51,907 nucleotides of DNA, from NCBI GenBank assembly GCA_031418115.1, contig JANOWT010000101.1:1-51907 (forward strand). The letters are read 5' to 3'. This document shows positions 898 to 22,722 of the stretch, piece by piece (the stretch's first letter is position 1; each line of letters starts with the position of its first letter). The stretch is from Gemmatimonadota bacterium. Its GTDB lineage: Bacteria; Gemmatimonadota; Gemmatimonadetes; Gemmatimonadales; Gemmatimonadaceae. The notes beneath the pieces were generated by a model, which saw nothing but the letters and a program-made list of their open reading frames with translations, searched no databases and had not been told where the DNA came from. The translations under genes were made by a program, and so were the position numbers.

Positions 898-2173
898 CCT
901 TCTTGGTCTTCTTCTTGAGGAAATCCATCAGGATGAACTGCCCCAGCGTCATGGTGTTCGTGAAGTAGGCTCGGCCACGCGTGATCGCGCTGACCATCTT
1001 CACGAACTCCACCAGCGCGGCATCGCGCGCGAGCATGAAGGTGTTCACTGGGATCGCCGCTTTGCGGCAGGCGGCGACCTCGGTGAGCGTTTCCTGCAGC
1101 ACGAACGCGTCGAGGCCCATCGAGTTCTTGTAGATGCGCCCATCAGGCATCGTCAGTGCGCTCGGCTTGCCGTCGGTGATCATCACGATCTGTCGCATGT
1201 CCTTCTTCTGGGCCATCAACAGCCGACGCGCGAGCTTGAGTCCCTCGGCGGTGTTCGTGTGATAGGGCCCCACTTGCGCCTTGGCGAGCGCGCCCATGGG
1301 GATCTCCTCGGCGGAGTCGTGGAAGAGCACGATCTTGATCGTGTCGCCGGGGAATGAGGTCTGGATCAGGTGCGTGAGTGCGAGCGCGACCTTCTTGGCG
1401 GGCGTGAAGCGGTCCTCGCCGTAGAGGATCATCGAGTGCGAGCAGTCGAGCATCAACACGGTCGCGCAGCTTGACCGGTACTCGCTCTGCCGCACCATGA
1501 GGTCGGAGTACTCGAGGTCCATCGGCACGTCGATGGAACCAGTGCGCAGCATCGAGTTCTTGAGCGTTTCGTTCACGTCGAGGTTGAGCACGTCGCCGAA
1601 CTCATACGGCTTGCTCCCCGCGTCGGACTCGATGCCGGTGGCCAAGTGCGGCGTGTCGTGCGAGCCGAAGTTGCTCTTGCCGAGCCCGCCGAGTATGCCA
1701 CGCAGTGACTTGTAGCCGAGGAAGTCGATGCCCTTGCTGGTGAGGTCGAACTGCACGTCCTGCGCGGCCGCCTTGGCGAGTCCACCTGGACCGAACACCG
1801 ACTGATGCCCCGCCGGCGCCTGTGGCGGCTGTGCCATCTTGAGGAAGCCCTCCTTGATGAGCCGCTGCACGATCTCGTCGAGGAGCTTGGAGAGCTTCTC
1901 CTCGGAGATGTCGTCGCCGTCGCCGCGGAGCGCTTCGAGCATCTCGGGCGTGAACTGGCCGCTCTGAATGAGCGAATCGAGGATCGCCTGGCGAAGCGCG
2001 TCCATCGAGCGGTCGCCGCCCTGGTCCTCCTCCTCGTAGCCCCATGGGTTCGACGGCCCGCCCCCGGCGAATCCTGACTGGAGCAGGAAGTCCGCGAGGT
2101 TGTCGAGCAGCGACTGAAGGTCCACCGCGTCGGCGGACTCGGGGCTGAACTTCGAATACGTGTGGAATCGCAC
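890..2173 (-). CDS. VWA domain protein (likely partner of ChlI/MoxR-like AAA+ ATPase)
   Basis: MIDAS motif DCSHS plus HTNT and MITDG. GGAGG SD lies upstream of the GTG. Confidence 0.9.
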
Positions 2174-2363
2174 GCCGGATGCCTCCTTGGCCTGATACTA
2201 ACGGCGGTGTTGGTCACGGGTTCCGGTGTAGGAGATTCCGGTATGCAGTGACGCTGGTCACCAGCGCCGTATTCCCGCACGGGCATTCGAGAGTATACTG
2301 TAAGTACGGAACCGACTCGGCCTTATTCAACGCCCTCCGCAGGTCCCCTCGACCCTCGATCCC

Positions 2364-3581
2364 ATGCCTTCGATCCGATTGCGTCCAATGCTCGTGCTCG
2401 GACTCGCGCTCGGTCTCATCCTCGCACCCTTTATCGCCTCCGCGCAGGCCGACCCGACCGCCGCGCAGGCACCGAAGCCCAAGACGTGGAAGTTCGCCCC
2501 GCGATTCGTCGTCGGTGCCGAGTACGACGACAACGTCTTCCTGCTCCCGGCCAGCAAGCGCCCCGATCCGGCAGCGCCGTCACCAGCGGAGCTTCTCAGC
2601 AGCCGCTACACCGGGATGGAGTCCGCCGCTGACCTGATCACCACGGTTGTGGCCACGCTGGCCATTCGTGGAGCGGGTCTCGGTGGTCGGGACCTCACGC
2701 TCACGCCTGAGTTCGACTACGAACTCTACGCCCGCAGTGGCGAGCGAAGCAACGCGGCATTCGGGCTCTCGGTCGAACAGCTCCTGCGCAAGGAAGGTCG
2801 TGTCCGCATCCGCGCACGGCTCCAACCCAGCTACTTCTCGCGCAACTACCTCTCCGATGCGGTGGATGCGAATCTCGACGGCGACATCCAGGCAGCCGAG
2901 CGCGTCTATTCTCGCGGCGAGTACTCTGAATCCGACCTGCAAGTCGACTACCGCCGTCGGCTCTCGAAGGCGAGCACTTCGCATCCGTTCGGCGCCTGGC
3001 TCCTCGTTGGTGCAGGCTTCGCGGACCGCACTCATGACGCACCGTTCGCCGCGCGCGATTTCAGCGGCATCACCGGCACGGCGCGGTTGCAGTTCGACCT
3101 GCCTCACGGCGTTGAGCTCGTGACATCCTACGATCTCGCGTCGCTCGGAAGTCCCCGGACGACGCAGGTGATCCTGCTCGACGAGCCCGTCTACGGCCAA
3201 GACCTGAACGGCAACGGCAACGCTACCGATCTGAACGCGCGTGCGGTCCGCACGGTCGACCGCTCACGCGTCGAGCAAGCGATCGGGGAGACCGCACGGT
3301 TCAACTTCACGAAGGCGACGGACCTCGAACTATCGGTGGAGTATCGCTGGCGCACGTTCACGTCAAACGAGCCGTACGATGTGGCCAACAATGGGCGCCG
3401 CGACCACCGGATGCAGGTGGGAGTCGAGACGTCGCATCGCGTCAACGGCATCGTTCGGATCTTCGGCGGCGGCGTGTACGGAAAGCAGAACCTGAATCGC
3501 CGCATCGACCTCGGAGCCGAGGGTGCGGTGGACGACTACAACAAGCTGCAGTTGCACGCCGGCCTCCGACTGACGCGCTGA
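2364..3581 (+). CDS. Outer-membrane beta-barrel protein, putative polymer-export porin-like
   Basis: Sec signal peptide (..ASA|Q), first strand ending EYDDNVF, alternating amphipathic strands, terminal strand LHAGLRLTR, two DxDxDG-like loops. Confidence 0.75.
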   Translation: MPSIRLRPMLVLGLALGLILAPFIASAQADPTAAQAPKPKTWKFAPRFVVGAEYDDNVFLLPASKRPDPAAPSPAELLSSRYTGMESAADLITTVVATLAIRGAGLGGRDLTLTPEFDYELYARSGERSNAAFGLSVEQLLRKEGRVRIRARLQPSYFSRNYLSDAVDANLDGDIQAAERVYSRGEYSESDLQVDYRRRLSKASTSHPFGAWLLVGAGFADRTHDAPFAARDFSGITGTARLQFDLPHGVELVTSYDLASLGSPRTTQVILLDEPVYGQDLNGNGNATDLNARAVRTVDRSRVEQAIGETARFNFTKATDLELSVEYRWRTFTSNEPYDVANNGRRDHRMQVGVETSHRVNGIVRIFGGGVYGKQNLNRRIDLGAEGAVDDYNKLQLHAGLRLTR

Positions 3582-3601
3582 ACCGACCTCACCACACCGA
3601 C

Positions 3602-4696
3602 ATGACCAAGACCAAGAAGCCGCGCCGGATCCTCTTCGCCGGCTACGCGCCGGTGCACTTCATCTGCTTCCAGCCGCTGTACGAGCGTCTGCGACGGATG
3701 CGCGGCATCGAGATCGTGCTCTCGGGCGGGCGCGACGTCATGCCGGAGGGGAATGGGAAGCTGACCGCGAGGGCGCTCTATGCCCCGTTCCGCCTGCCCC
3801 CCGACCGCATCGTTGAACTCGATCGGATGCGGAAGCAGACGTTCGATCTCGTCTTCTGCGCGCACGTCTCTGGCTATTTCCCGAAGGACGAGCAGGAGCG
3901 GATCCAGCTATTCCACGGCGTCTCGTTCCGGAACATGGCGGTGCGGCGCGACGTGCTCGTCTACGACCGGCTCTTTCTCACTGGGCCGTACATGCGGCGT
4001 CTCTTCACCGAGTCGCAGATGCTGCGAGACCGCGACGCGAAGCTCGTGAACATCGGCTTCCCGAAGCTCGACCGCCTGGTGAACGGCGAGCTCGACCGCG
4101 CGTCGATCCTCCGGCGCATCGGCTTCTCCGGGCGCCGTCCGGTCATCCTCTACGCGCCCACCGGGCAGAAGGACAACTCGCTCGAGCACACGGGCGAGGC
4201 GGTGCTGGAGCGCCTGCGCGCTACGGGGAAGTACGACATCCTCATCAAGCTCCATGACCATCCCCGCGACCGCGGCACCGATTGGCCGACACGCCTGAAG
4301 CCGCTGCTCGATCGCCACACCAAACTCGCCACTGGGCTCGATGTCGTGCCCTACATGTACGTCGCCGACCTCCTGCTCACCGATGCGTCATCGGTATCGA
4401 GCGAGTTCTCGCTGCTCGACCGGCCGATGGTCTTCCTCGACGTGCCGCAGTTGCTCTCGGCGATGACCAAGAAGGGCGTCGCTCTGGATCTCGATACCTG
4501 GGGACGAAAGGGTGGCGTGACGGTGCGTTGGCCCGATGATGCGGTGGAGGCGATCGGCTGGTCGCTCGCGCACCCAGGCCACGCGAGCAAGCTACGTCGC
4601 GCGATGGCGCGCGACCTGTTCTACAATCCCGGCCACGCCACCGACGCTGCACTCGACTGGGTGCTCCAGCGCTTGCGTTCGCTCGACGAGGCCTGA
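3602..4696 (+). CDS. CDP-glycerol/CDP-polyol glycerophosphotransferase family protein (TagB/TagF-like)
   Basis: QLFHG, GFPKLD, ILYAPT, IKLH and DLLLTDASSVSSEFSLLDRPMVF match the TagF family pattern, including both catalytic His positions. Confidence 0.88.
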   Translation: MTKTKKPRRILFAGYAPVHFICFQPLYERLRRMRGIEIVLSGGRDVMPEGNGKLTARALYAPFRLPPDRIVELDRMRKQTFDLVFCAHVSGYFPKDEQERIQLFHGVSFRNMAVRRDVLVYDRLFLTGPYMRRLFTESQMLRDRDAKLVNIGFPKLDRLVNGELDRASILRRIGFSGRRPVILYAPTGQKDNSLEHTGEAVLERLRATGKYDILIKLHDHPRDRGTDWPTRLKPLLDRHTKLATGLDVVPYMYVADLLLTDASSVSSEFSLLDRPMVFLDVPQLLSAMTKKGVALDLDTWGRKGGVTVRWPDDAVEAIGWSLAHPGHASKLRRAMARDLFYNPGHATDAALDWVLQRLRSLDEA

Positions 4697-4698
4697 GT

Positions 4699-6465
4699 AT
4701 GGAGGCCACCCCGCGCCGCCCGCTGCGCCGCATCATCGAGATGCTGCGTCCGCATGCGGCCGGTGAGGCGCCTGCGTTCGCTAGGGGTGCGCTCCTCGGC
4801 CTCTTGACCGTCGTGTTGCACGTGCTGCGTCCGTGGCCGCTGAAGTGGATCGTCGATGGCCTTGGCGGCACTCCGGTAGCGGATCCGCGCTGGCTCGTCC
4901 TCGCCTTCATCGGGCTCGCCGCGGCGGGCTCCGTCGCGGCGTATGGTCAGGCGATGATCCTCAACGGACTCGGCAACCGGATCCTCTATCGATTCCGGGA
5001 GCGCCTGTTCAGTCATGTCCTGCGGCAGCCGTTGGCCTTTCACGAGACGCGCGAAGTCGGCGAGCTGATGACGCGGATCGTCTACGACACGACACGTCTG
5101 CGGCGCGGCCTCAATGGGATGCTCGTGCGGATCGTGCAGACGATCGCACTCTTCGTCGCCTCGATGGCGGCGCTGCTCTGGATCGACCCGCGACTCGCCG
5201 GGGTGCTGCTCGCCGGCGGAGGTGTCGCGTTGCTCATGATGAAGCGTCGCGGACAGCGGATCGCCGCAGTCGCGAAGAAGCAGAGAACCAAGGAGGGTCT
5301 GCTCGCCGCACTCGTCGGCAGCGAGCTCATGGCGGTGCGCGAACTCCAGGCCTTCGGGTTCGGCGGCAGTGCGGTCGCTGCGCGATTCGCTGCGCGCAAC
5401 GGCCGCAGCATGCGCCAGGAACTGAAGCTGCAGCGACTCTCCCTTGGACTCTCGCTGCGCGTGGATGTCGCGGTCTCGGCGAGCATCGCGGTCGCCATGT
5501 GGCTCGGCGCCTCGGGCGTCCGCTTCGGGGAGCTCACCGCGGGCGACCTCGTGCTCTTCCTGTCGTATGCGCTGGCCCTGCGCGCGCCGTTCGCGGACTT
5601 CGCCGTAGCGACCGCGCGGATCGGCCGGACCTTCGCCTGCGCCGAACGGCTCGACCGCATCATGCGCCGCGGGGTCGCGATCGCGGATCGGCCGGACGCG
5701 GTCGGCGCGGACGGCATCCAGGGTGCGCTACGCTTCGAGAAGGTCTCGCTGTTGATGCCCAAGCGCAGGCGGACCGACCGGAAGTGGGCGCTCGAGAAGT
5801 TGGAGTGCGACTTCCCAATCGGTCGGCGCGTCGCAATCGTCGGTGGGAACGGGGCCGGCAAGTCCACGCTGCTCTCGCTGGTGCTCCGCCTCGCCGATCC
5901 CTCCCGTGGCCGGATCCTCCTCGACGACCGCGACCTGCGAGACTACGCGCTCGAACCGCTCCGGCGTCGGATGAGTGTGGTCTTCCAGGACAGCGTGCTC
6001 ACCGGCGTGAGCGTCCGGGACAACATCGCGCTGGGCGACCAGAGCGCGACGCTCGACGCCGTTCGCCTCGCGGCGGAGCAGGCGGGCGTCGCACGGTTCA
6101 TCGAACGCCTGCCGCAGGGCTACGACACGATCGTCCGCCGAGGCGGCGACCTCTTCTCGGGCGGCGAGCGGCAGCGCATCGCACTGGCGCGCGCGCTACT
6201 GCGCGACGGTCGAGTCTGGCTGCTCGACGAGCCGACCACCGGACTCGACCACCGGTCGGCGCTCGAGCTCACGGACCGGCTCCTCGAGGTGACTCAGGGC
6301 CGCACCGTGCTCTGGGTGACGCACGACCCGGAACTGCTCGCACGGATGGACCTCGTGCTGGAACTCGGAGCCGGCCGCGTTCGGTTCTGCGGCACTCCGT
6401 CGGACTTCGCGGGTCGGGCTGCACCCAGCGCGCCGACGCCGATCAACAGCTCACCGGAGCACTGA
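4699..6465 (+). CDS. ABC exporter, fused TMD+NBD (MsbA/PglK-like)
   Basis: N-terminal TM helices, Walker A GGNGAGKST, Q-loop VFQD, signature FSGGERQR, Walker B LLDE, H-loop VTH. Confidence 0.93.
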   Translation: MEATPRRPLRRIIEMLRPHAAGEAPAFARGALLGLLTVVLHVLRPWPLKWIVDGLGGTPVADPRWLVLAFIGLAAAGSVAAYGQAMILNGLGNRILYRFRERLFSHVLRQPLAFHETREVGELMTRIVYDTTRLRRGLNGMLVRIVQTIALFVASMAALLWIDPRLAGVLLAGGGVALLMMKRRGQRIAAVAKKQRTKEGLLAALVGSELMAVRELQAFGFGGSAVAARFAARNGRSMRQELKLQRLSLGLSLRVDVAVSASIAVAMWLGASGVRFGELTAGDLVLFLSYALALRAPFADFAVATARIGRTFACAERLDRIMRRGVAIADRPDAVGADGIQGALRFEKVSLLMPKRRRTDRKWALEKLECDFPIGRRVAIVGGNGAGKSTLLSLVLRLADPSRGRILLDDRDLRDYALEPLRRRMSVVFQDSVLTGVSVRDNIALGDQSATLDAVRLAAEQAGVARFIERLPQGYDTIVRRGGDLFSGGERQRIALARALLRDGRVWLLDEPTTGLDHRSALELTDRLLEVTQGRTVLWVTHDPELLARMDLVLELGAGRVRFCGTPSDFAGRAAPSAPTPINSSPEH

Positions 6466-6466
6466 G

Positions 6467-7690
6467 ATGCAAGCCGTCATACTCGCCGCGGGAATGGGCA
6501 GCCGCCTCAACTCGATGACTGGCGGCGGCTCCAAGGCGCTCGTCGAGATCGGTGGTCGCCCGCTGCTGTTGCACACGCTCGAGGCCCTCGCCGACCACGG
6601 CATCGGGCCCGTGCTCGTGATCGTCGGTCACGAAGCGCATGCGTTGCAAGAGGTCATCGGCGACCGCGCTGAGGTCCTGCTCAACGAGCGCTTCGCAGAG
6701 ACCAATAGCCTCTACTCGCTCTGGCTGGCACGCGACTGGATCAAGGGTCCCTTCGTCCTGCTCAACTGCGATCTGTTCTTCGACCCGGCTATCCTCGACG
6801 ACCTGCTCGAGCAGACCGGCAACGTGCTCGCGTACGACTCGACGTCATCCCGTGGGCGCGAGCAGACGAAGGTCGCGCTGAAGGAGCGGCGCGTCGTCGA
6901 CCTTGGCAAGGATCTTCCGACGAACTCGGCTCGCGGCGAGAGTCTCGGCATGATCAAGTTCGACGCCGAGGGTTCCCGCGCGATGATCGCGACGGCCAAG
7001 CACCTCATCGAAGATGGGCAGGAGAATGCGTGGGTGATCGAGGCGACACGCAGTGTCTGCAAGGAGATCACCCTCTACGGACTCAACATCGCCGGCAAGG
7101 CCTGGACCGAGATCGACTTCCCCTACGATCTCGACGTCGCGCGGCGCGAGGTATGGCCGGTCATCTGGCGTGGACGCTGGCGGAAGCAGGTGTACTGGAA
7201 GCGCACGCGGTGGGCGGCGATCGCCGCGGCCGTCGCGATGATCGCGCTGCTCGGCTGGTTCGCGAGCACGCAACTCGGGCCCGGCAGCGTCGATTGGGAG
7301 ACCGTGGAACTCGGTGGCGCCGAGATGGTGCGTGTCGTCCGCGTCGACGGTGAGCAGCGGTGGTGGAACGCACCGATCGACGTTCCGGTCACCGCGAGCG
7401 TTGAAGGCGCCGAGGCCGACATCCAACTGCGTCTGGTGCATCCCGACGGCAGTCCGGACTCGTTGCGGTTCGTCGTCGCGATCACGATCGACGGCCATCC
7501 CGCCGATTGGCGTGCGCTCACCTCACTGCCGGACACGAGCGCACATCTGGGCGATCTGCGATTGGGCGACCGCGACCGTATCCGGCTCGAGCTCGGCCCG
7601 GGCAAGCACACGGTGGTGGTCATGCTCGCAGAGGGCCACGGACAGCGCATGCTCGTGCGCGTGAGGCAGCCGGTCGTGCGCGAGGACTGA
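6467..7690 (+). CDS. LicC/PntC-like phosphocholine/phosphonate cytidylyltransferase fused to a TM helix and C-terminal beta-rich domain
   Basis: AVILAAGMGSRL, K in GSKAL, NERFAETNSLYSL, LNCDL, WTEIDFPYDL. These are followed by a basic stretch, a hydrophobic helix and about 140 aa of beta-rich sequence. Confidence 0.85.
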   Translation: MQAVILAAGMGSRLNSMTGGGSKALVEIGGRPLLLHTLEALADHGIGPVLVIVGHEAHALQEVIGDRAEVLLNERFAETNSLYSLWLARDWIKGPFVLLNCDLFFDPAILDDLLEQTGNVLAYDSTSSRGREQTKVALKERRVVDLGKDLPTNSARGESLGMIKFDAEGSRAMIATAKHLIEDGQENAWVIEATRSVCKEITLYGLNIAGKAWTEIDFPYDLDVARREVWPVIWRGRWRKQVYWKRTRWAAIAAAVAMIALLGWFASTQLGPGSVDWETVELGGAEMVRVVRVDGEQRWWNAPIDVPVTASVEGAEADIQLRLVHPDGSPDSLRFVVAITIDGHPADWRALTSLPDTSAHLGDLRLGDRDRIRLELGPGKHTVVVMLAEGHGQRMLVRVRQPVVRED

Positions 7691-7762
7691 GTTCAGGAAC
7701 AGGGACACGCGACCGGCGGCCCTGTCATCGCGGTCATCCCCCGGCGAGCTTTCGGAGCCCCG

Positions 7763-8998
7763 ATGACTGCCCCCCTCGCGTCCCGCTCGCTCAACCCATT
7801 CCGGACCCTCGCCAAGTACCGGAACTTTCGGATCTTCTGGCTCGGGCAGACGACGTCGCTCGTCGGTTCGTGGATGCAGACGGTGGCCGTAGGATGGACC
7901 GCGCTCGAGCTCACGAACGACGCCTTCATGGTCGGGCTCGTCTCCGCAGCGAACACCTTCCCGATCCTCATCTTCTCGCTCCCCGGCGGCGTCGTCGCCG
8001 ACCGCAACGAGAAGTTGCGCGTGGTGCGGATCGCGCAGGCGCTCATGCTGGCAGAGGCGGCCGCGCTCTGGGCGCTCTCGTTCACGGGGCATCTCACCAT
8101 CGGTTGGTTGCTCGCGCTCTCGCTCTTCGGCGGGCTGCTCGCCGCCTTCGAGATCCCTGCGCGCCAGTCGCTCATGGTAGAGCTGGTCGGCAAGGAGGAC
8201 ATCGCGCAAGCGATCGGCCTCAACTCCACCGGCTTTAATCTCGCGCGCGTACTGGGCCCGAGTGTCGCGGCCGTCGTGATCGCACGACTCGGCGTGTCGT
8301 GGACCTTCGGACTGAATGCCGTCAGTTACCTCGCCGTGCTCGTCGGTCTCGCGATGATCACGTTGCCAGAGCGGCGCGCGGCGGCGCGGCAGGGCGTGAG
8401 TCACGTGCAGGGAATGCGTGAGGCGATCCGCCACGTCCTCGACACGCCGCCGCTGCCCATGCTCCTCGCCATCGCGACGGTCTTCTCGGTGCTAGGCGTG
8501 CCGGTGATCACGCTCTTGCCGGTGATCGCGCGCGATCAACTCGGGCTCGGCGCCGACGGCTACGGCGCGCTCATGGCCTGTCTGGGACTCGGCGCGGTGG
8601 TGGGCGCGCTCGCGATCGCCGCCACGGGCGGCGGTGCACAGCGCGGAAAGGTATTCCGCGCTGCGTCGTTCAGCTTTGCGTTGCTGCTACTCGTCTTCTC
8701 GTTCGTGCGGGAGCCTGTGCTCAACGGCGTGTTGCTCTTCGCGATCGGTGTCGCGATGATCCTCAACAACGCACTCGTGAATGCGCGGTTGCAGGAGCTC
8801 GTCCCCGATGCGATCCGTGGGCGCGTGCTCTCGCTCTACGTCATGGTCTACGTCGGTGGTTCCCCGATCGGCTCGTTCGTCGGCGGCTGGGTGGCGAGCG
8901 TGGCCGGCGTGGACTGGGCGATCGGAGGCGGGGCGGTGCTGATGCTACTCTTCGCGCTCTGGGCGTTCCGGCGGCATCCCATGCTTGCGGCGCACTGA
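7763..8998 (+). CDS. MFS transporter (12 TM, DHA3/MFS_3-like)
   Basis: RNFRIFWLGQ..S..GSWMQ, GGVVADR, PARQS, NLARVLGP, RGRVLS motifs. Confidence 0.92.
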   Translation: MTAPLASRSLNPFRTLAKYRNFRIFWLGQTTSLVGSWMQTVAVGWTALELTNDAFMVGLVSAANTFPILIFSLPGGVVADRNEKLRVVRIAQALMLAEAAALWALSFTGHLTIGWLLALSLFGGLLAAFEIPARQSLMVELVGKEDIAQAIGLNSTGFNLARVLGPSVAAVVIARLGVSWTFGLNAVSYLAVLVGLAMITLPERRAAARQGVSHVQGMREAIRHVLDTPPLPMLLAIATVFSVLGVPVITLLPVIARDQLGLGADGYGALMACLGLGAVVGALAIAATGGGAQRGKVFRAASFSFALLLLVFSFVREPVLNGVLLFAIGVAMILNNALVNARLQELVPDAIRGRVLSLYVMVYVGGSPIGSFVGGWVASVAGVDWAIGGGAVLMLLFALWAFRRHPMLAAH

Positions 8999-10408
8999 CC
9001 GGCCGTACTGCCCGGTCTCCGACCGCGAGAGTTTCCGACGCGCGACGAGCGCTTCGAGTACGAGTTCGCACGCCACCACTGAGTCGGCGTCATCGGTCAC
9101 GCCGAGCCCGGCCGCAGTGATCTGATCGATCAGTCCGGGCACGGTCGCGAAGCCTGCGCGCGCCACCGCGGCGCTCGCATCGTCACTCACCTGCAGCGCC
9201 TGCCCGCGGTCGAACCACATCACGATCTCGTCCAGGTCGAGCGTGTTGTCGCGCTCGGTGAGCGTCGCGTCGGCGGCGCGGCGGATCAACTCGCGTGCGA
9301 TCACCGCTCCGCCGATCAACTCGCCCTCGTATTCGAGTTCGATCTTGCCTGTGATCGCCGGCAGGGCCGCGTAGATGTCAGCGAGGCGGGGGACGATCTC
9401 CTTCTCGCCCAGTCGCACCGCGCGACGCTCGGCGTTGGAGATCACGTTCTCGAGCAGCGAGATCGAAAGTCGCTGTGAGACACCCGACCTCTGGTCGATC
9501 CGCTTCTCCTGCCGCGCCTCGAAGGCGACACGCTCCGCGACTTCCGAGACGATCTCGGGCAGGCGCAGCGGGAGTCCGTCGCGCTTGGTCCACGCTTCCT
9601 GCTGCGTGATCGTCATCGCGAGGTCGACCGTCGCCGGATAGTGCGTGATGATCTCGCTGCCGATCCGGTCCTTGAGCGGCGTGATGATCTTGCCGCGCGC
9701 TGTGTAGTCCTCGGGGTTGGCCGTGAACGCAAGGACCACGTCGAGCGCGAGGCGCACCGGGTAGCCCTTGATCTGCACGTCGCCTTCCTGCATCACGTTG
9801 AACAAGCCCACCTGCACCTTGCCGGCGAGGTCAGGGAGTTCGTTCAGCGCGAAGATCCCGCGGTTGGCGCGCGGGAGCATGCCGTAGTTGATCGAGAGCT
9901 CGTCCGAGAGCAGGTGACCGCCGCGCGCCGCCTTGATCGGGTCGAGGTCGCCGATCAGGTCGGCCACCGTGACGTCCGGCGTCGCGAGCTTCTCCACGTA
10001 GCGTTGATCGGGTGTGAGCCAAGCGATCGGCGTCTCGTCACCCATCGTGGCGAGGCGATCGCGGCCGTACTTGCTGATCGGCGCGAACGGATCGTCGTTG
10101 GTCTCGCTTCCGGCGATCACCGGCAGCTGCGGGTCGAGCAGTGTGGTGAGTGCGCGCAGGATGCGCGACTTGGCCTGGCCGCGGAGTCCGAGCAGAATGA
10201 AATGGTGCTTGGAGAGCAGCGCGTTCACGATCTGCGGCATGACCGTGTCCTCGTAGCCGAGGACGCCCTTGAAGAGCGGCTTACCGTCGGCGATGCGTGC
10301 GAGGAGGTTGGCGCGGATCTCGTCGCGGACCGAACGGCCGCGGCGTTCCGGCGCGCCGAAGGGAGAGCGCGCGAGGGCGCCGAGGGTGGTGGGAAGCGAA
10401 GTCGTCAC
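8945..10408 (-). CDS. Magnesium-chelatase (ChlI)/MoxR-like AAA+ ATPase
   Basis: Walker A variant GLRGQAKS, ANRGIFALNELPDL, TANPEDYT, PLKDR. Start trimmed to GTG 10408; a TATACT -10-like box lies at 10433-10438. Confidence 0.88.
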   Translation of the reverse strand: MTTSLPTTLGALARSPFGAPERRGRSVRDEIRANLLARIADGKPLFKGVLGYEDTVMPQIVNALLSKHHFILLGLRGQAKSRILRALTTLLDPQLPVIAGSETNDDPFAPISKYGRDRLATMGDETPIAWLTPDQRYVEKLATPDVTVADLIGDLDPIKAARGGHLLSDELSINYGMLPRANRGIFALNELPDLAGKVQVGLFNVMQEGDVQIKGYPVRLALDVVLAFTANPEDYTARGKIITPLKDRIGSEIITHYPATVDLAMTITQQEAWTKRDGLPLRLPEIVSEVAERVAFEARQEKRIDQRSGVSQRLSISLLENVISNAERRAVRLGEKEIVPRLADIYAALPAITGKIELEYEGELIGGAVIARELIRRAADATLTERDNTLDLDEIVMWFDRGQALQVSDDASAAVARAGFATVPGLIDQITAAGLGVTDDADSVVACELVLEALVARRKLSRSETGQYGRSVRRKHGMPPERPEREE

Positions 10409-21627: not shown

Positions 21628-22722
21628 TCACAAATGTTCGAGCGCGCGCAGGGTATCAGCGTCGTTCACCCTCACTCCGTACTGCGTCTCGCTCCCGGCC
21701 ATCTCGCCGAGTGCTCGAGGAAGCGCGAACTCGACGTGACCGCCGCGCGATTTCTTGTCGGTGCGCGTCGCGGTGACCACCTCAGAGGGGCTAACGCCAT
21801 CGGGTAGGCGCACCGGAAGGCCTGCGGCGTCGCAGACGGTAGCGATCGCATCAGCGAGCCCGCGCTCGGCAAGATGCAGACGCTCGGCGAGGAGCGCCTC
21901 GGCGACCATTCCGATCGCGACCGCTTCGCCATGCGCCACGCCGTAGCCGGTCACGTGTTCGATCGCGTGGCCGATCGTATGTCCGAAGTTGAGCACTTTG
22001 CGCAGCCCGCTCTCGCGTTCGTCCTGCCTCACGACCTGCACCTTGATCTCGATCGACCGACGCACGAGGTGTAGCTGCGTGGCGTCGTCGGGGGTGTCGG
22101 CGTGCAGGATCTGGCGGAGCCCGGCAGCGATCCATGAGAAGTAGGCGGCGTCGGCGATAACGCCGTGCTTGATCGCCTCGGCGAGACCGAAGCGCAGTTC
22201 CCGCGGCGGCAACGTGGTGAGGAGCCGCGGATCGGCGACCACCAGCGTGGGGTGATGGAAGGCACCGACGAGATTCTTGCCTGCCGGCGTGTCGACGCCC
22301 GTCTTGCCGCCGATCGAGGCGTCGATCATCGCGAGCAGCGTCGTCGGCACCTGGATGAACGGCACGCCGCGCAAGTACGTCGCGGCGACGAAGCCCGCGA
22401 GGTCGCCGGTGACGCCACCGCCGAGCGCGACGATCACGGTGTCGCGGCCGCATCCGGCGGCGATGAGCTGATCGCTCAGCGTGGCCCAGCTCTGCCGCGT
22501 CTTGTGGCGCTCGCCAGCGGGAAAGGTGAGAAGCAGCGGCGCGGGGTCCATTCCGCTGAATGACGTGCGCGCTCTCTCGCCGTGAAGTGCGGCCACTGTC
22601 TGATCGGCGATGAGCGCGACGCGATGCCCAGGGGCGCGTCCGCTCACACGCGCACCGAGCGAGTCGAGCGCACCGGGCGCGATCTCGATCGTCGCGCCGT
22701 GGAGCGTCAGCGACTGGGGCAC
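21628..22722 (-). CDS. aroB: 3-dehydroquinate synthase
   Basis: ALGGGVTGDLAGF, PTTLLAMIDASIGGKTG, LNFGHTIGHAIE, HGEAV. Confidence 0.96.
   Translation of the reverse strand: MPQSLTLHGATIEIAPGALDSLGARVSGRAPGHRVALIADQTVAALHGERARTSFSGMDPAPLLLTFPAGERHKTRQSWATLSDQLIAAGCGRDTVIVALGGGVTGDLAGFVAATYLRGVPFIQVPTTLLAMIDASIGGKTGVDTPAGKNLVGAFHHPTLVVADPRLLTTLPPRELRFGLAEAIKHGVIADAAYFSWIAAGLRQILHADTPDDATQLHLVRRSIEIKVQVVRQDERESGLRKVLNFGHTIGHAIEHVTGYGVAHGEAVAIGMVAEALLAERLHLAERGLADAIATVCDAAGLPVRLPDGVSPSEVVTATRTDKKSRGGHVEFALPRALGEMAGSETQYGVRVNDADTLRALEHL

Follow-up and report, generated by a model that had tools for sequence, protein, structure and literature searches.

What might four genes lying almost end to end in a diderm bacterium make and export together? 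The question is raised by a 51,907-nucleotide stretch of Gemmatimonadota DNA (family Gemmatimonadaceae; assembly GCA_031418115.1, contig JANOWT010000101.1), which we call the window. On its plus strand, gaps of 20, 2 and 1 nt separate open reading frames (ORFs) for a predicted outer-membrane beta-barrel, a TagF-like transferase, an ABC exporter, and a nucleotidyltransferase that we term the activator (Table 1); these coordinates bear out the co-directional arrangement described in a first-pass annotation of the sequence, which had read the genes as a route to activate, transfer, flip and export a teichoic-acid-like unit. The explanation we favor, and to which we give a little less than an even chance, is synthase-like: an anionic phosphodiester chain would be made from a nucleotide-activated neutral polyol phosphate and exported without a dedicated lipid carrier. 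Each component is a member of a known family or similar to one. For the layout, we found no description in the literature covered by our search, which left out most subscription papers.

A compact cassette and its conservation

We compared loci related to the cassette, the top 80 among 213 from genomes and the top 80 among 272 from metagenomes; these 160 loci were not de-duplicated and include some near-copies. Forty-eight were informative, their sequence extending at least 2 kb upstream and at least 5 kb downstream from the transferase gene. All 48 have an activator no more than 7.5 kb away from it, 45 have an ABC membrane domain, and 35 have all four genes; 27 shorter loci are also complete. 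This neighborhood co-occurrence agrees with the earlier view of the cassette as self-contained and conserved. The 13 informative loci without the window's barrel comprise seven with another barrel (one divergent member was judged by eye; porin O/P or AlgE was assigned by Pfam or clustering) and six with none identifiable. Compared with two relatives, all four genes have dN/dS values of 0.07–0.24, and this purifying selection, together with the conserved gene order, makes the grouping more than chance. Pairwise identities of the transferase also track those of the activator (Spearman 0.88) and of the ABC protein (0.87), the pairs not being independent.

Relatives further join the parts in single proteins: activator with transferase (P0242, P0249), ABC membrane domain with transferase (P0244, P0247), transferase with ABC protein (P0250), two transferase domains in tandem (P0241), and transferase with a phytase-like domain. 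The transferase and activator are the invariant core of the cassette, and the ABC protein and barrel resemble an export chassis that can be exchanged. Barrels of three types are found with the core: the window's own family, phosphate-selective porin O/P and AlgE alginate-export barrels. The window's barrel itself occurs in 11 of 401 phylum genomes, these being all eight carriers and three genomes with a different enzyme set. In that sister cassette (L193:7574-14173, L194:3-6199, L195:1-4030), the genes after the barrel encode a DUF1611-like P-loop protein, an M36-like peptidase and a CapA/PGA_cap phosphoesterase; the last two are fused in L193, and a related ABC exporter follows in L193 and L194, whose contigs are long enough.

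The cassette behaves as an accessory cassette. The ortholog is present in 8 of the 401 phylum genomes and, within the genus, in 4 of the 36 other genomes. Complete cassettes also occur, in two gene orders, in records titled Bacteroidota, Elusimicrobia and Planctomycetales (these bins may be mixed), and the spread is patchy over at least seven named phyla. Close relatives are Gemmatimonadota metagenome-assembled genomes (MAGs), GC content and third-position GC content (GC3) resemble those of neighboring genes, with slightly lower GC3 in the barrel, and plasmid searches returned only distant relatives in other contexts. At the corresponding site (window 2173-7763), a single Na/Ca exchanger gene fills the gap between the VWA and MFS genes in two same-genus non-carriers and adjoins the MFS gene in a third (L189:3344-4315, L190:3627-4598, L192:5236-6207); no ortholog of this exchanger was found in the window's own genome. 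The exchanger at this site and the EF-hand-like loops of the barrel hint at a calcium link, which may be chance.

Might the cassette be a fragment of a lipopolysaccharide (LPS) or capsule locus? Of 75 immediate neighbors, 53 were scanned and 22 omitted as already scanned or judged repeats; the omitted ones include VWA, MFS, hslU-like, argF-like and other genes, one being an opposite-strand GT2 gene in L092. None of the 53 scanned proteins, about one-third of which lack a Pfam match at E 1e-8, was recognized as a glycosyltransferase, Wzx/Wzy, Wzm/Wzt, Kps or other glycan-pathway gene product, and no teichoic-acid genes were recognized among the scanned flanks. PF05159 (KpsC/S) was not found in the window's own genome, which is 91% complete. 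We reject the fragment explanation because the flanks vary, those scanned hold no recognized glycan genes and PF05159 was not found in the genome; together with the 35 complete informative loci, this upholds the first-pass view that the cassette is not part of a standard LPS or capsule locus.

Proposed activation and transfer

Assignment of the transferase is straightforward at the level of family and fold. It scores 66.9 bits against PF04464 (cut-off 22.1), and its model (pLDDT 92.9) has a GT-B fold whose nearest structure is TagF (Z 26.5, rmsd 3.2 Å over 327 residues), with TagF, TarL, Cps3D and Bcs3 as its top structural neighbors. The counterpart of His218 in TagF, H584, reads A in mutant entry 3l7m, and the surrounding K-x-H-D-H is kept in 156 of 156 motif matches among the 160 loci; residue counts were taken without row L086 of alignment A4, which contains the wrong half of its protein. 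His105 lies in an F-H-G sequence that fits the W-H-small motif at TagF H444 and TarL H300 (PMC10901376), a match of motif only, since the printed alignments begin after it. FHG[VLI]SFR recurs in 157 of 158 motif matches among the same loci. The proposed TagF-type phosphotransferase with both catalytic histidines is thus supported for family, fold and, by alignment, H218, and by motif only for H105. P186 aligns with P395 of the TarL cytidine pocket, the roles of TarL P395 and H433 being described in PMC10901376. The protein is a single domain: model residues 6-363 align to TagF 351-723 and TarL 207-561. Because the TarL amphipathic helix a4 spans residues 171-205, the transferase lacks the N-terminal segment that bears it. 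It is the sole PF04464 gene per genome in all five carriers examined.

The catalytic domain of the activator has structural matches to PntC (Z 30.6), IPCT (27.1) and LicC (27.1), the best matches in the PDB being PntC, LicC and IPCT. R13, K23, D102, K148, E215 and D217, the catalytic residues, are invariant in 97 of 97 homologs. Equally invariant is Asn100 (6764-6766), which replaces the amine-binding acid, PntC Glu104 or LicC Asp105; these acids contact the substrate amine or occupy that position (PMC6697681). Two IPCTs also carry a neutral residue there (Met or Cys), and the activator shares an E-x-x-K...K motif with IPCTs. NF041135 (IPCT/DIPPS) is the NCBIfam family matched by 26 of 27 activators and is the best match of the window's copy, at 91–93 bits far below the cut-off of 580.

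Genome content points the same way. Choline kinase (PF01633) was found in none of five carriers, and PEP mutase (TIGR02320) passes its cut-off in only 1 of 10, on a different contig from the cassette. Taken with Asn100, the mostly missing choline-kinase and PEP-mutase genes make a neutral polyol phosphate likelier than choline or aminoethylphosphonate, so that tailoring with phosphocholine or aminoethylphosphonate is disfavored and the LicC/PntC-type substrate proposed at first is not borne out. The cassette contains no LicD and, by Pfam, no CDP-alcohol phosphotransferase domain; a TagD-type enzyme (TIGR01518) exceeds its cut-off in none of five carriers. Within the four-gene form there is no kinase, priming enzyme or glycosyltransferase, and the missing kinase points to a housekeeping phosphate ester as substrate. 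Inositol-1-phosphate synthase occurs in 4 of the 5 carriers. Because 189 of 201 phylum genomes have it too (among these 189 is the unpublished G201, which supports no other claim here), its presence means little. As a rough judgment, glycerol phosphate and some other polyol or sugar phosphate are the two leading candidates, each individually doubtful; inositol-1-phosphate is slightly less likely, and an amine phosphate or phosphonate is improbable.

A Gtp1-like dehydrogenase route to glycerol-1/2-phosphate was set aside as uninformative, PF13685 giving one weak match per genome in all five carriers (E 5e-10 to 4e-6). The match in the window's own genome falls on window 21631-22722, which we take to be aroB. 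An APH scan of the five carriers returned mostly weak matches.

Behind its catalytic domain the activator continues into a predicted membrane anchor and an all-beta domain. More Lys and Arg residues precede than follow the transmembrane helix in 54 of 54 homologs, and by the positive-inside pattern the C terminus is predicted to be periplasmic. The first-pass annotation was right about the LicC/PntC-like cytidylyltransferase fold and overlooked both the C-terminal helix and the periplasmic domain. The latter has no Pfam match in the window's copy and no PDB or Atlas match; fold searches of the activator were filled by catalytic-domain matches, and the periplasmic domain got no placement. A profile search among short proteins gave 11 unnamed matches, and in L092 it is also encoded as a separate gene. 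In L062 (6059-7282), from a MAG, the activator gene is split in two ORFs, by a frameshift or an assembly error.

Proposed export and competing explanations

The ABC protein fuses ABC_membrane and ABC_tran domains in a type IV (MsbA-fold) half-exporter, and its Walker A and B, Q-loop, signature and H-switch motifs are all intact in the window. It scores 258 bits against MsbA (cut-off 602) and 109 against PglK (cut-off 1000). The description as an MsbA/PglK-type exporter therefore holds for the type IV architecture and not for MsbA or PglK proper, both equivalog cut-offs lying above its scores. A quick tree separates the cassette ABC proteins from the other exporters encoded in the genome (SH-aLRT 99). 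Three loci of the window's own clade, L070, L078 and L085, have a cassette without the ABC gene, and no ortholog was found elsewhere in these genomes (best identity 23–27%). A gene for a DUF4956-like membrane protein (E 1e-3 to 5e-4) follows in L070 and L078 where the ABC gene is missing, and an MFS gene is found in the clusters of L100 and L101 where it is missing. Of the steps first proposed, flipping fares worst: there is no priming or lipid-carrier enzyme, and in relatives the ABC protein is lost, ATPase-degenerate or found together with other membrane proteins.

Degeneration is a feature of a distant clade, mostly Planctomycetota and Pseudomonadota, that is well supported in the TagF tree (100/99). 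Its ABC proteins have degenerate ATPase motifs or have lost the domain, 16 of 17 rows have a short activator without anchor, and porin O/P or AlgE supplies the barrel. Added to the clusters are kinase-fold proteins, a second TagF-like domain, and genes for MFS, two-component systems and histidine phosphatase. Beside ATPase-degenerate ABC genes, L091, L098, L100, L101, L103 and L104 encode APH-fold proteins of 440–470 aa. An Asp-to-Asn change in the catalytic loop, seen in 6 of 7 aligned rows, makes them likely pseudokinases. Searching the window's own genome with a profile built from the distant-clade kinases gave no match.

Gene 1 is predicted from its sequence to encode an outer-membrane beta-barrel whose family has no name and is weakly linked to EpsL and to BBP2/Slam-type barrels. 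It begins with a signal-like N terminus (hydrophobic segment aa 3–29), has no Pfam match and no PDB sequence match, and reaches 25 bits against TIGR03014 EpsL (cut-off 275), a weak match to EpsL/PEP-CTERM barrels. Its Atlas neighbors carry SlipAM/BBP2 on a minority of members, with BBP2 on 43% of one neighbor cluster. The outer-membrane barrel of the first-pass annotation is consistent with these features and is kept as a prediction. Many Arg and Asp columns are conserved in the family (alignment A5). The EF-hand-like loop is missing in one subclade, and Pfam EF-hand_5 matches homolog L079 at E 0.085. Profile comparison found no homology of the window's barrel to one member each of porin O/P and AlgE, of which AlgE is a known polymer-export porin (PMC9603273). 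No OPX partner was seen in cassettes or among the scanned flanks.

These parts can be arranged in a working scheme whose chemical steps we infer from family knowledge. The membrane-anchored activator would couple CTP with a housekeeping polyol phosphate to give CDP-X, and the TagF-like enzyme would transfer X-phosphate by means of its two histidines, releasing CMP; activation and transfer, as first proposed, fit the folds of the two enzymes. Having no membrane segment of its own, the transferase may rely on the ABC protein and the activator, to both of which it is fused in relatives, to stay at the membrane. The ABC protein would serve as an inner-membrane conduit, with ATP use optional across the family, and the periplasmic beta-domain of the activator might guide the chain to the Arg-rich barrel, much as BcsB does for cellulose. 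In its strictest form this would be a carrier-independent "TagF synthase," a soluble polymerase on a type IV ABC channel with the anchored activator bridging to an anion-conducting barrel, in which the ABC-plus-barrel pair also carries other enzyme payloads; we regard this form as a doubtful, if serious, possibility.

Several observations weigh against the synthase-like explanation. Six of the 48 informative loci show no identifiable barrel, and the sister cassette has the same barrel without the activator or its periplasmic domain. In L085 (G226), neither the ABC gene nor an evident substitute lies downstream, the upstream side being cut by the contig end. The donor loop of the transferase, V/L/I-S-F, is of neither the "PL" (glycerol) nor the "GAF" (ribitol) type of the published rule (PMC10901376). 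TagF-family enzymes, moreover, need an acceptor, and none is encoded in the cassette; some act once, as do TagB and CpsA, PF04464 primases that make single transfers onto lipid acceptors (PMC11666461). At PntC Glu196, the second amine contact, two alignments differ in register and Glu192 is present in 76 of 97 homologs, which leaves Asn100 as the main argument against an amine substrate. Inositol-1-phosphate synthase was not found in the window's own genome nor in three of three other genomes of the genus. Only one named cultured strain, Craurococcus roseus JCM 9933 (L101), appeared among the carriers seen, and it has the distant cluster type; the ortholog occurs in 1 of 251 genomes of its family. 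Finally, MFS and type IV ABC proteins can flip glycolipids, so the interchange of transporters is compatible with a lipid-linked product.

A lipid-linked product is central to the rival closest to the first-pass reading, envelope-lipid tailoring, which we consider possible though rather doubtful. The TagF-like enzyme would add one or a few X-phosphate units to a lipid acceptor made elsewhere (a phospholipid, a glycolipid, LPS core or an undecaprenyl pyrophosphate glycan), the ABC protein would flip the product, and the barrel would anchor or display it. The single-transfer primases of PMC11666461 and a donor loop without polymerase motifs favor such a role, as do the intact ATPase of the MsbA-fold protein in the four-gene form, the distant paralogous TagF and activator pairs that lie among glycosyltransferase-like genes in other Gemmatimonadota (L022, L023, L025), and the precedent of S. 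meliloti msbA2, a compact operon with an MsbA-like exporter (PMC3687685). It accords poorly, however, with a transferase without an N-terminal membrane segment, with the loss or ATPase degeneration of the ABC protein in many relatives, with the failure to find KpsC/S in the window's own genome, and with porin O/P and AlgE barrels, which are not known as lipid movers.

Loss of the lipid altogether leads to an improbable alternative, in which the product is a small phosphodiester solute or short oligomer, akin to di-myo-inositol phosphate or glycerophospho-inositol, released as an osmolyte or cation chelator in the manner of the NdvA/ChvA cyclic glucans. The IPCT/DIPPS matches of the activators fit it, even if that of the window's copy is far below the cut-off; so do the interchangeable transporter slots, the Na/Ca exchanger gene at the site in three non-carriers, and histidine-phosphatase, PhoD and phytase-like partners that could strip a terminal phosphate. 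A dedicated barrel and a periplasmic domain are nonetheless hard to explain for a solute, and the cassette has no CDP-alcohol phosphotransferase domain and the window's genome no inositol-1-phosphate synthase that we could find. Very unlikely, in our judgment, is phosphorus scavenging or sensing, with the barrel importing organophosphates and the module and nearby two-component systems sensing or recycling them. The distant clade has features that would suit it: phosphate-selective porins, PhoD, phytase fusions, two-component regulators, degenerate ABC ATPases, and kinase-fold proteins with the catalytic-loop Asp-to-Asn change. Both enzyme families, however, generally run in the CTP-consuming synthetic direction, and no regulator or hydrolase is conserved in the four-gene form.

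Phosphatase-type partners were also noted in their own right, beside or fused to relatives (P0261, P0262; L185:3063-4124; L100:14895-15578; L158:7168-7719; L068:14178-14660). They include a phytase-like propeller after a hydrophobic segment, PhoD, a histidine phosphatase, a possible tyrosine-phosphatase-like ORF without a Pfam match, and NUDIX.

Known systems and further features of the locus

It is useful to contrast the cassette with established pathways. Wall teichoic acid synthesis (TagO/A/B/F/D, TarL, TagGH, LCP) shares with it the TagF fold and histidines (H105 by motif), a CDP donor, and a predicted anionic phosphodiester. The cassette, by contrast, sits in a diderm, has no priming enzymes of its own, uses an activator of the PntC/IPCT/LicC fold rather than TagD and a type IV exporter rather than TagGH, has a transferase that differs from the teichoic acid polymerases in its missing N-terminal membrane segment and its loop, neither PL nor GAF, and adds an outer-membrane barrel. 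Neither the cassette nor the scanned flanks contain wall teichoic acid priming enzymes, TagD, TagGH or LCP, no genome-wide search having been made for TagO, TagA and LCP. Group 2 capsules with TagF-like polymerases (CpsA/C/D, Bcs3) likewise combine a TagF-like domain in a Gram-negative with ABC-linked export; their polymerases have a GT-A or GT-B domain as partner and require KpsC/S, KpsMT and KpsD/E (PMC5974469, PMC11666461), whereas the cassette transferase is single-domain and no Kps genes occur in the cassette or scanned flanks.

The activator invites comparison with the Lic (phosphocholine) and Pnt (aminoethylphosphonate) pathways, with which it shares its fold and catalytic Arg, Lys and Asp (PMC6697681); the distant clade resembles them further in having a kinase-fold gene and an MFS gene. 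It departs from them in the Asn at the Asp105/Glu104 position, in having no LicA or LicD, in a PEP mutase that is rare and unlinked, and in the fusion to a membrane helix and periplasmic domain. The IPCT/DIPPS compatible-solute pathway offers the closest NCBIfam family, a neutral pocket residue and the E-x-x-K motif, but the scores are far below cut-off, a TagF-like transferase takes the place of DIPPS, and export genes are present. Synthase-dependent export (BcsA/B/C, Alg8/AlgE, PgaA; PMC9603273) is alike in its inner-membrane conduit, membrane-anchored periplasmic domain and outer-membrane barrel, and it differs in that the presumed cassette polymerase is a GT-B phosphotransferase rather than a channel-forming GT-2, an ABC protein would act as the conduit, and there is no OPX or co-polymerase. 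AlgE-type barrels fill the barrel slot in two relatives. EpsX/WzpX barrel translocons reportedly have a comparable barrel-based export layout.

Two smaller systems are instructive. The S. meliloti msbA2 operon also has four genes, an MsbA-like exporter and an uncharacterized polysaccharide product; it relies on glycosyltransferases and an acyltransferase and includes no barrel (PMC3687685). Pneumococcal wchX-gtp1-3 places a dedicated CDP-polyol pathway beside a glycerol phosphotransferase, and these genes decorate a Wzy-dependent capsule (PMC1391919). The cassette would work much as a teichoic-acid or TagF-like capsule pathway does, but judged by what defines the wall teichoic acid, group 2 capsule, Lic, Pnt and IPCT/DIPPS pathways, it belongs to none of them, in keeping with the initial impression that it fits no recognized pathway. 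Going by their presumed family assignments, Gtp2 and WchX may provide a pneumococcal precedent for pairing a LicC-fold activator with a polyol-phosphate transferase.

If the synthase-like explanation is correct, the cassette would be a minimal four-gene route for making and secreting a teichoic-acid-like polyanion in Gram-negatives, small enough for laboratory reconstitution. It would give roles to an unnamed barrel family, to the periplasmic domain and to a large uncharacterized branch of PF04464, and would widen the substrate range of the PntC/LicC/IPCT fold. In its carrier-independent form, it would add an envelope-polymer route beside Wzx/Wzy, Wzm-Wzt/Kps and the GT-2 synthases. The natural loss of ATPase motifs and the swaps of transporter and barrel would also suit the cassette to testing how export is coupled to polymer synthesis.

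Table 1. Positions of the cassette genes and of selected sites and domains in the window
Feature	Position	Strand	Basis
Gene 1, predicted outer-membrane beta-barrel, 405 aa	2364-3581	+	ORF; alternative ATG at 2388
EF-hand-like loop in barrel, aa 168-179, predicted Ca-binding surface loop	2865-2900	+	Sequence, alignment A5
Gene 2, TagF-like phosphotransferase, 364 aa	3602-4696	+	ORF, PF04464
His105, putative catalytic base in FHG-V-S-F	3914-3916	+	Motif F104-H105-G106, after beta-strand in model
His218, equivalent of TagF H584 / TarL H433	4253-4255	+	Residue-level alignments
Gene 3, type IV ABC half-exporter, 588 aa	4699-6465	+	ORF, ABC_membrane + ABC_tran
Gene 4, membrane-anchored nucleotidyltransferase (activator), 407 aa	6467-7690	+	ORF, fold
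Nucleotidyltransferase domain, PntC/IPCT/LicC fold, aa 1-240	6467-7186	+	Structural matches
Single predicted transmembrane helix, aa 247-270, basic N-side	7205-7276	+	Transmembrane prediction
All-beta predicted periplasmic domain, ~135 aa, conserved W/R residues	7280-7690	+	All-strand high-confidence model, alignment A6

Rfam gave no matches in the window, and no sigma-70 promoter or terminator matches were found within 2100-7900. Many Gemmatimonadota cassettes encode, between barrel and transferase, a small secreted basic protein of ~120 aa with several conserved Cys residues (for example L032:5375-5740), which has no family match and is absent from the window. Family F8, a predicted lipoprotein of ~230 aa with an Ig-like domain, adjoins or lies near the cassette in either orientation in six Gemmatimonadota genome loci (L035, L053, L055, L056, L061 and L069). 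In the window, a VWA-domain gene (890-2173) and a MoxR-like AAA ATPase gene (8945-10408), on the opposite strand, flank the cassette and the MFS gene.

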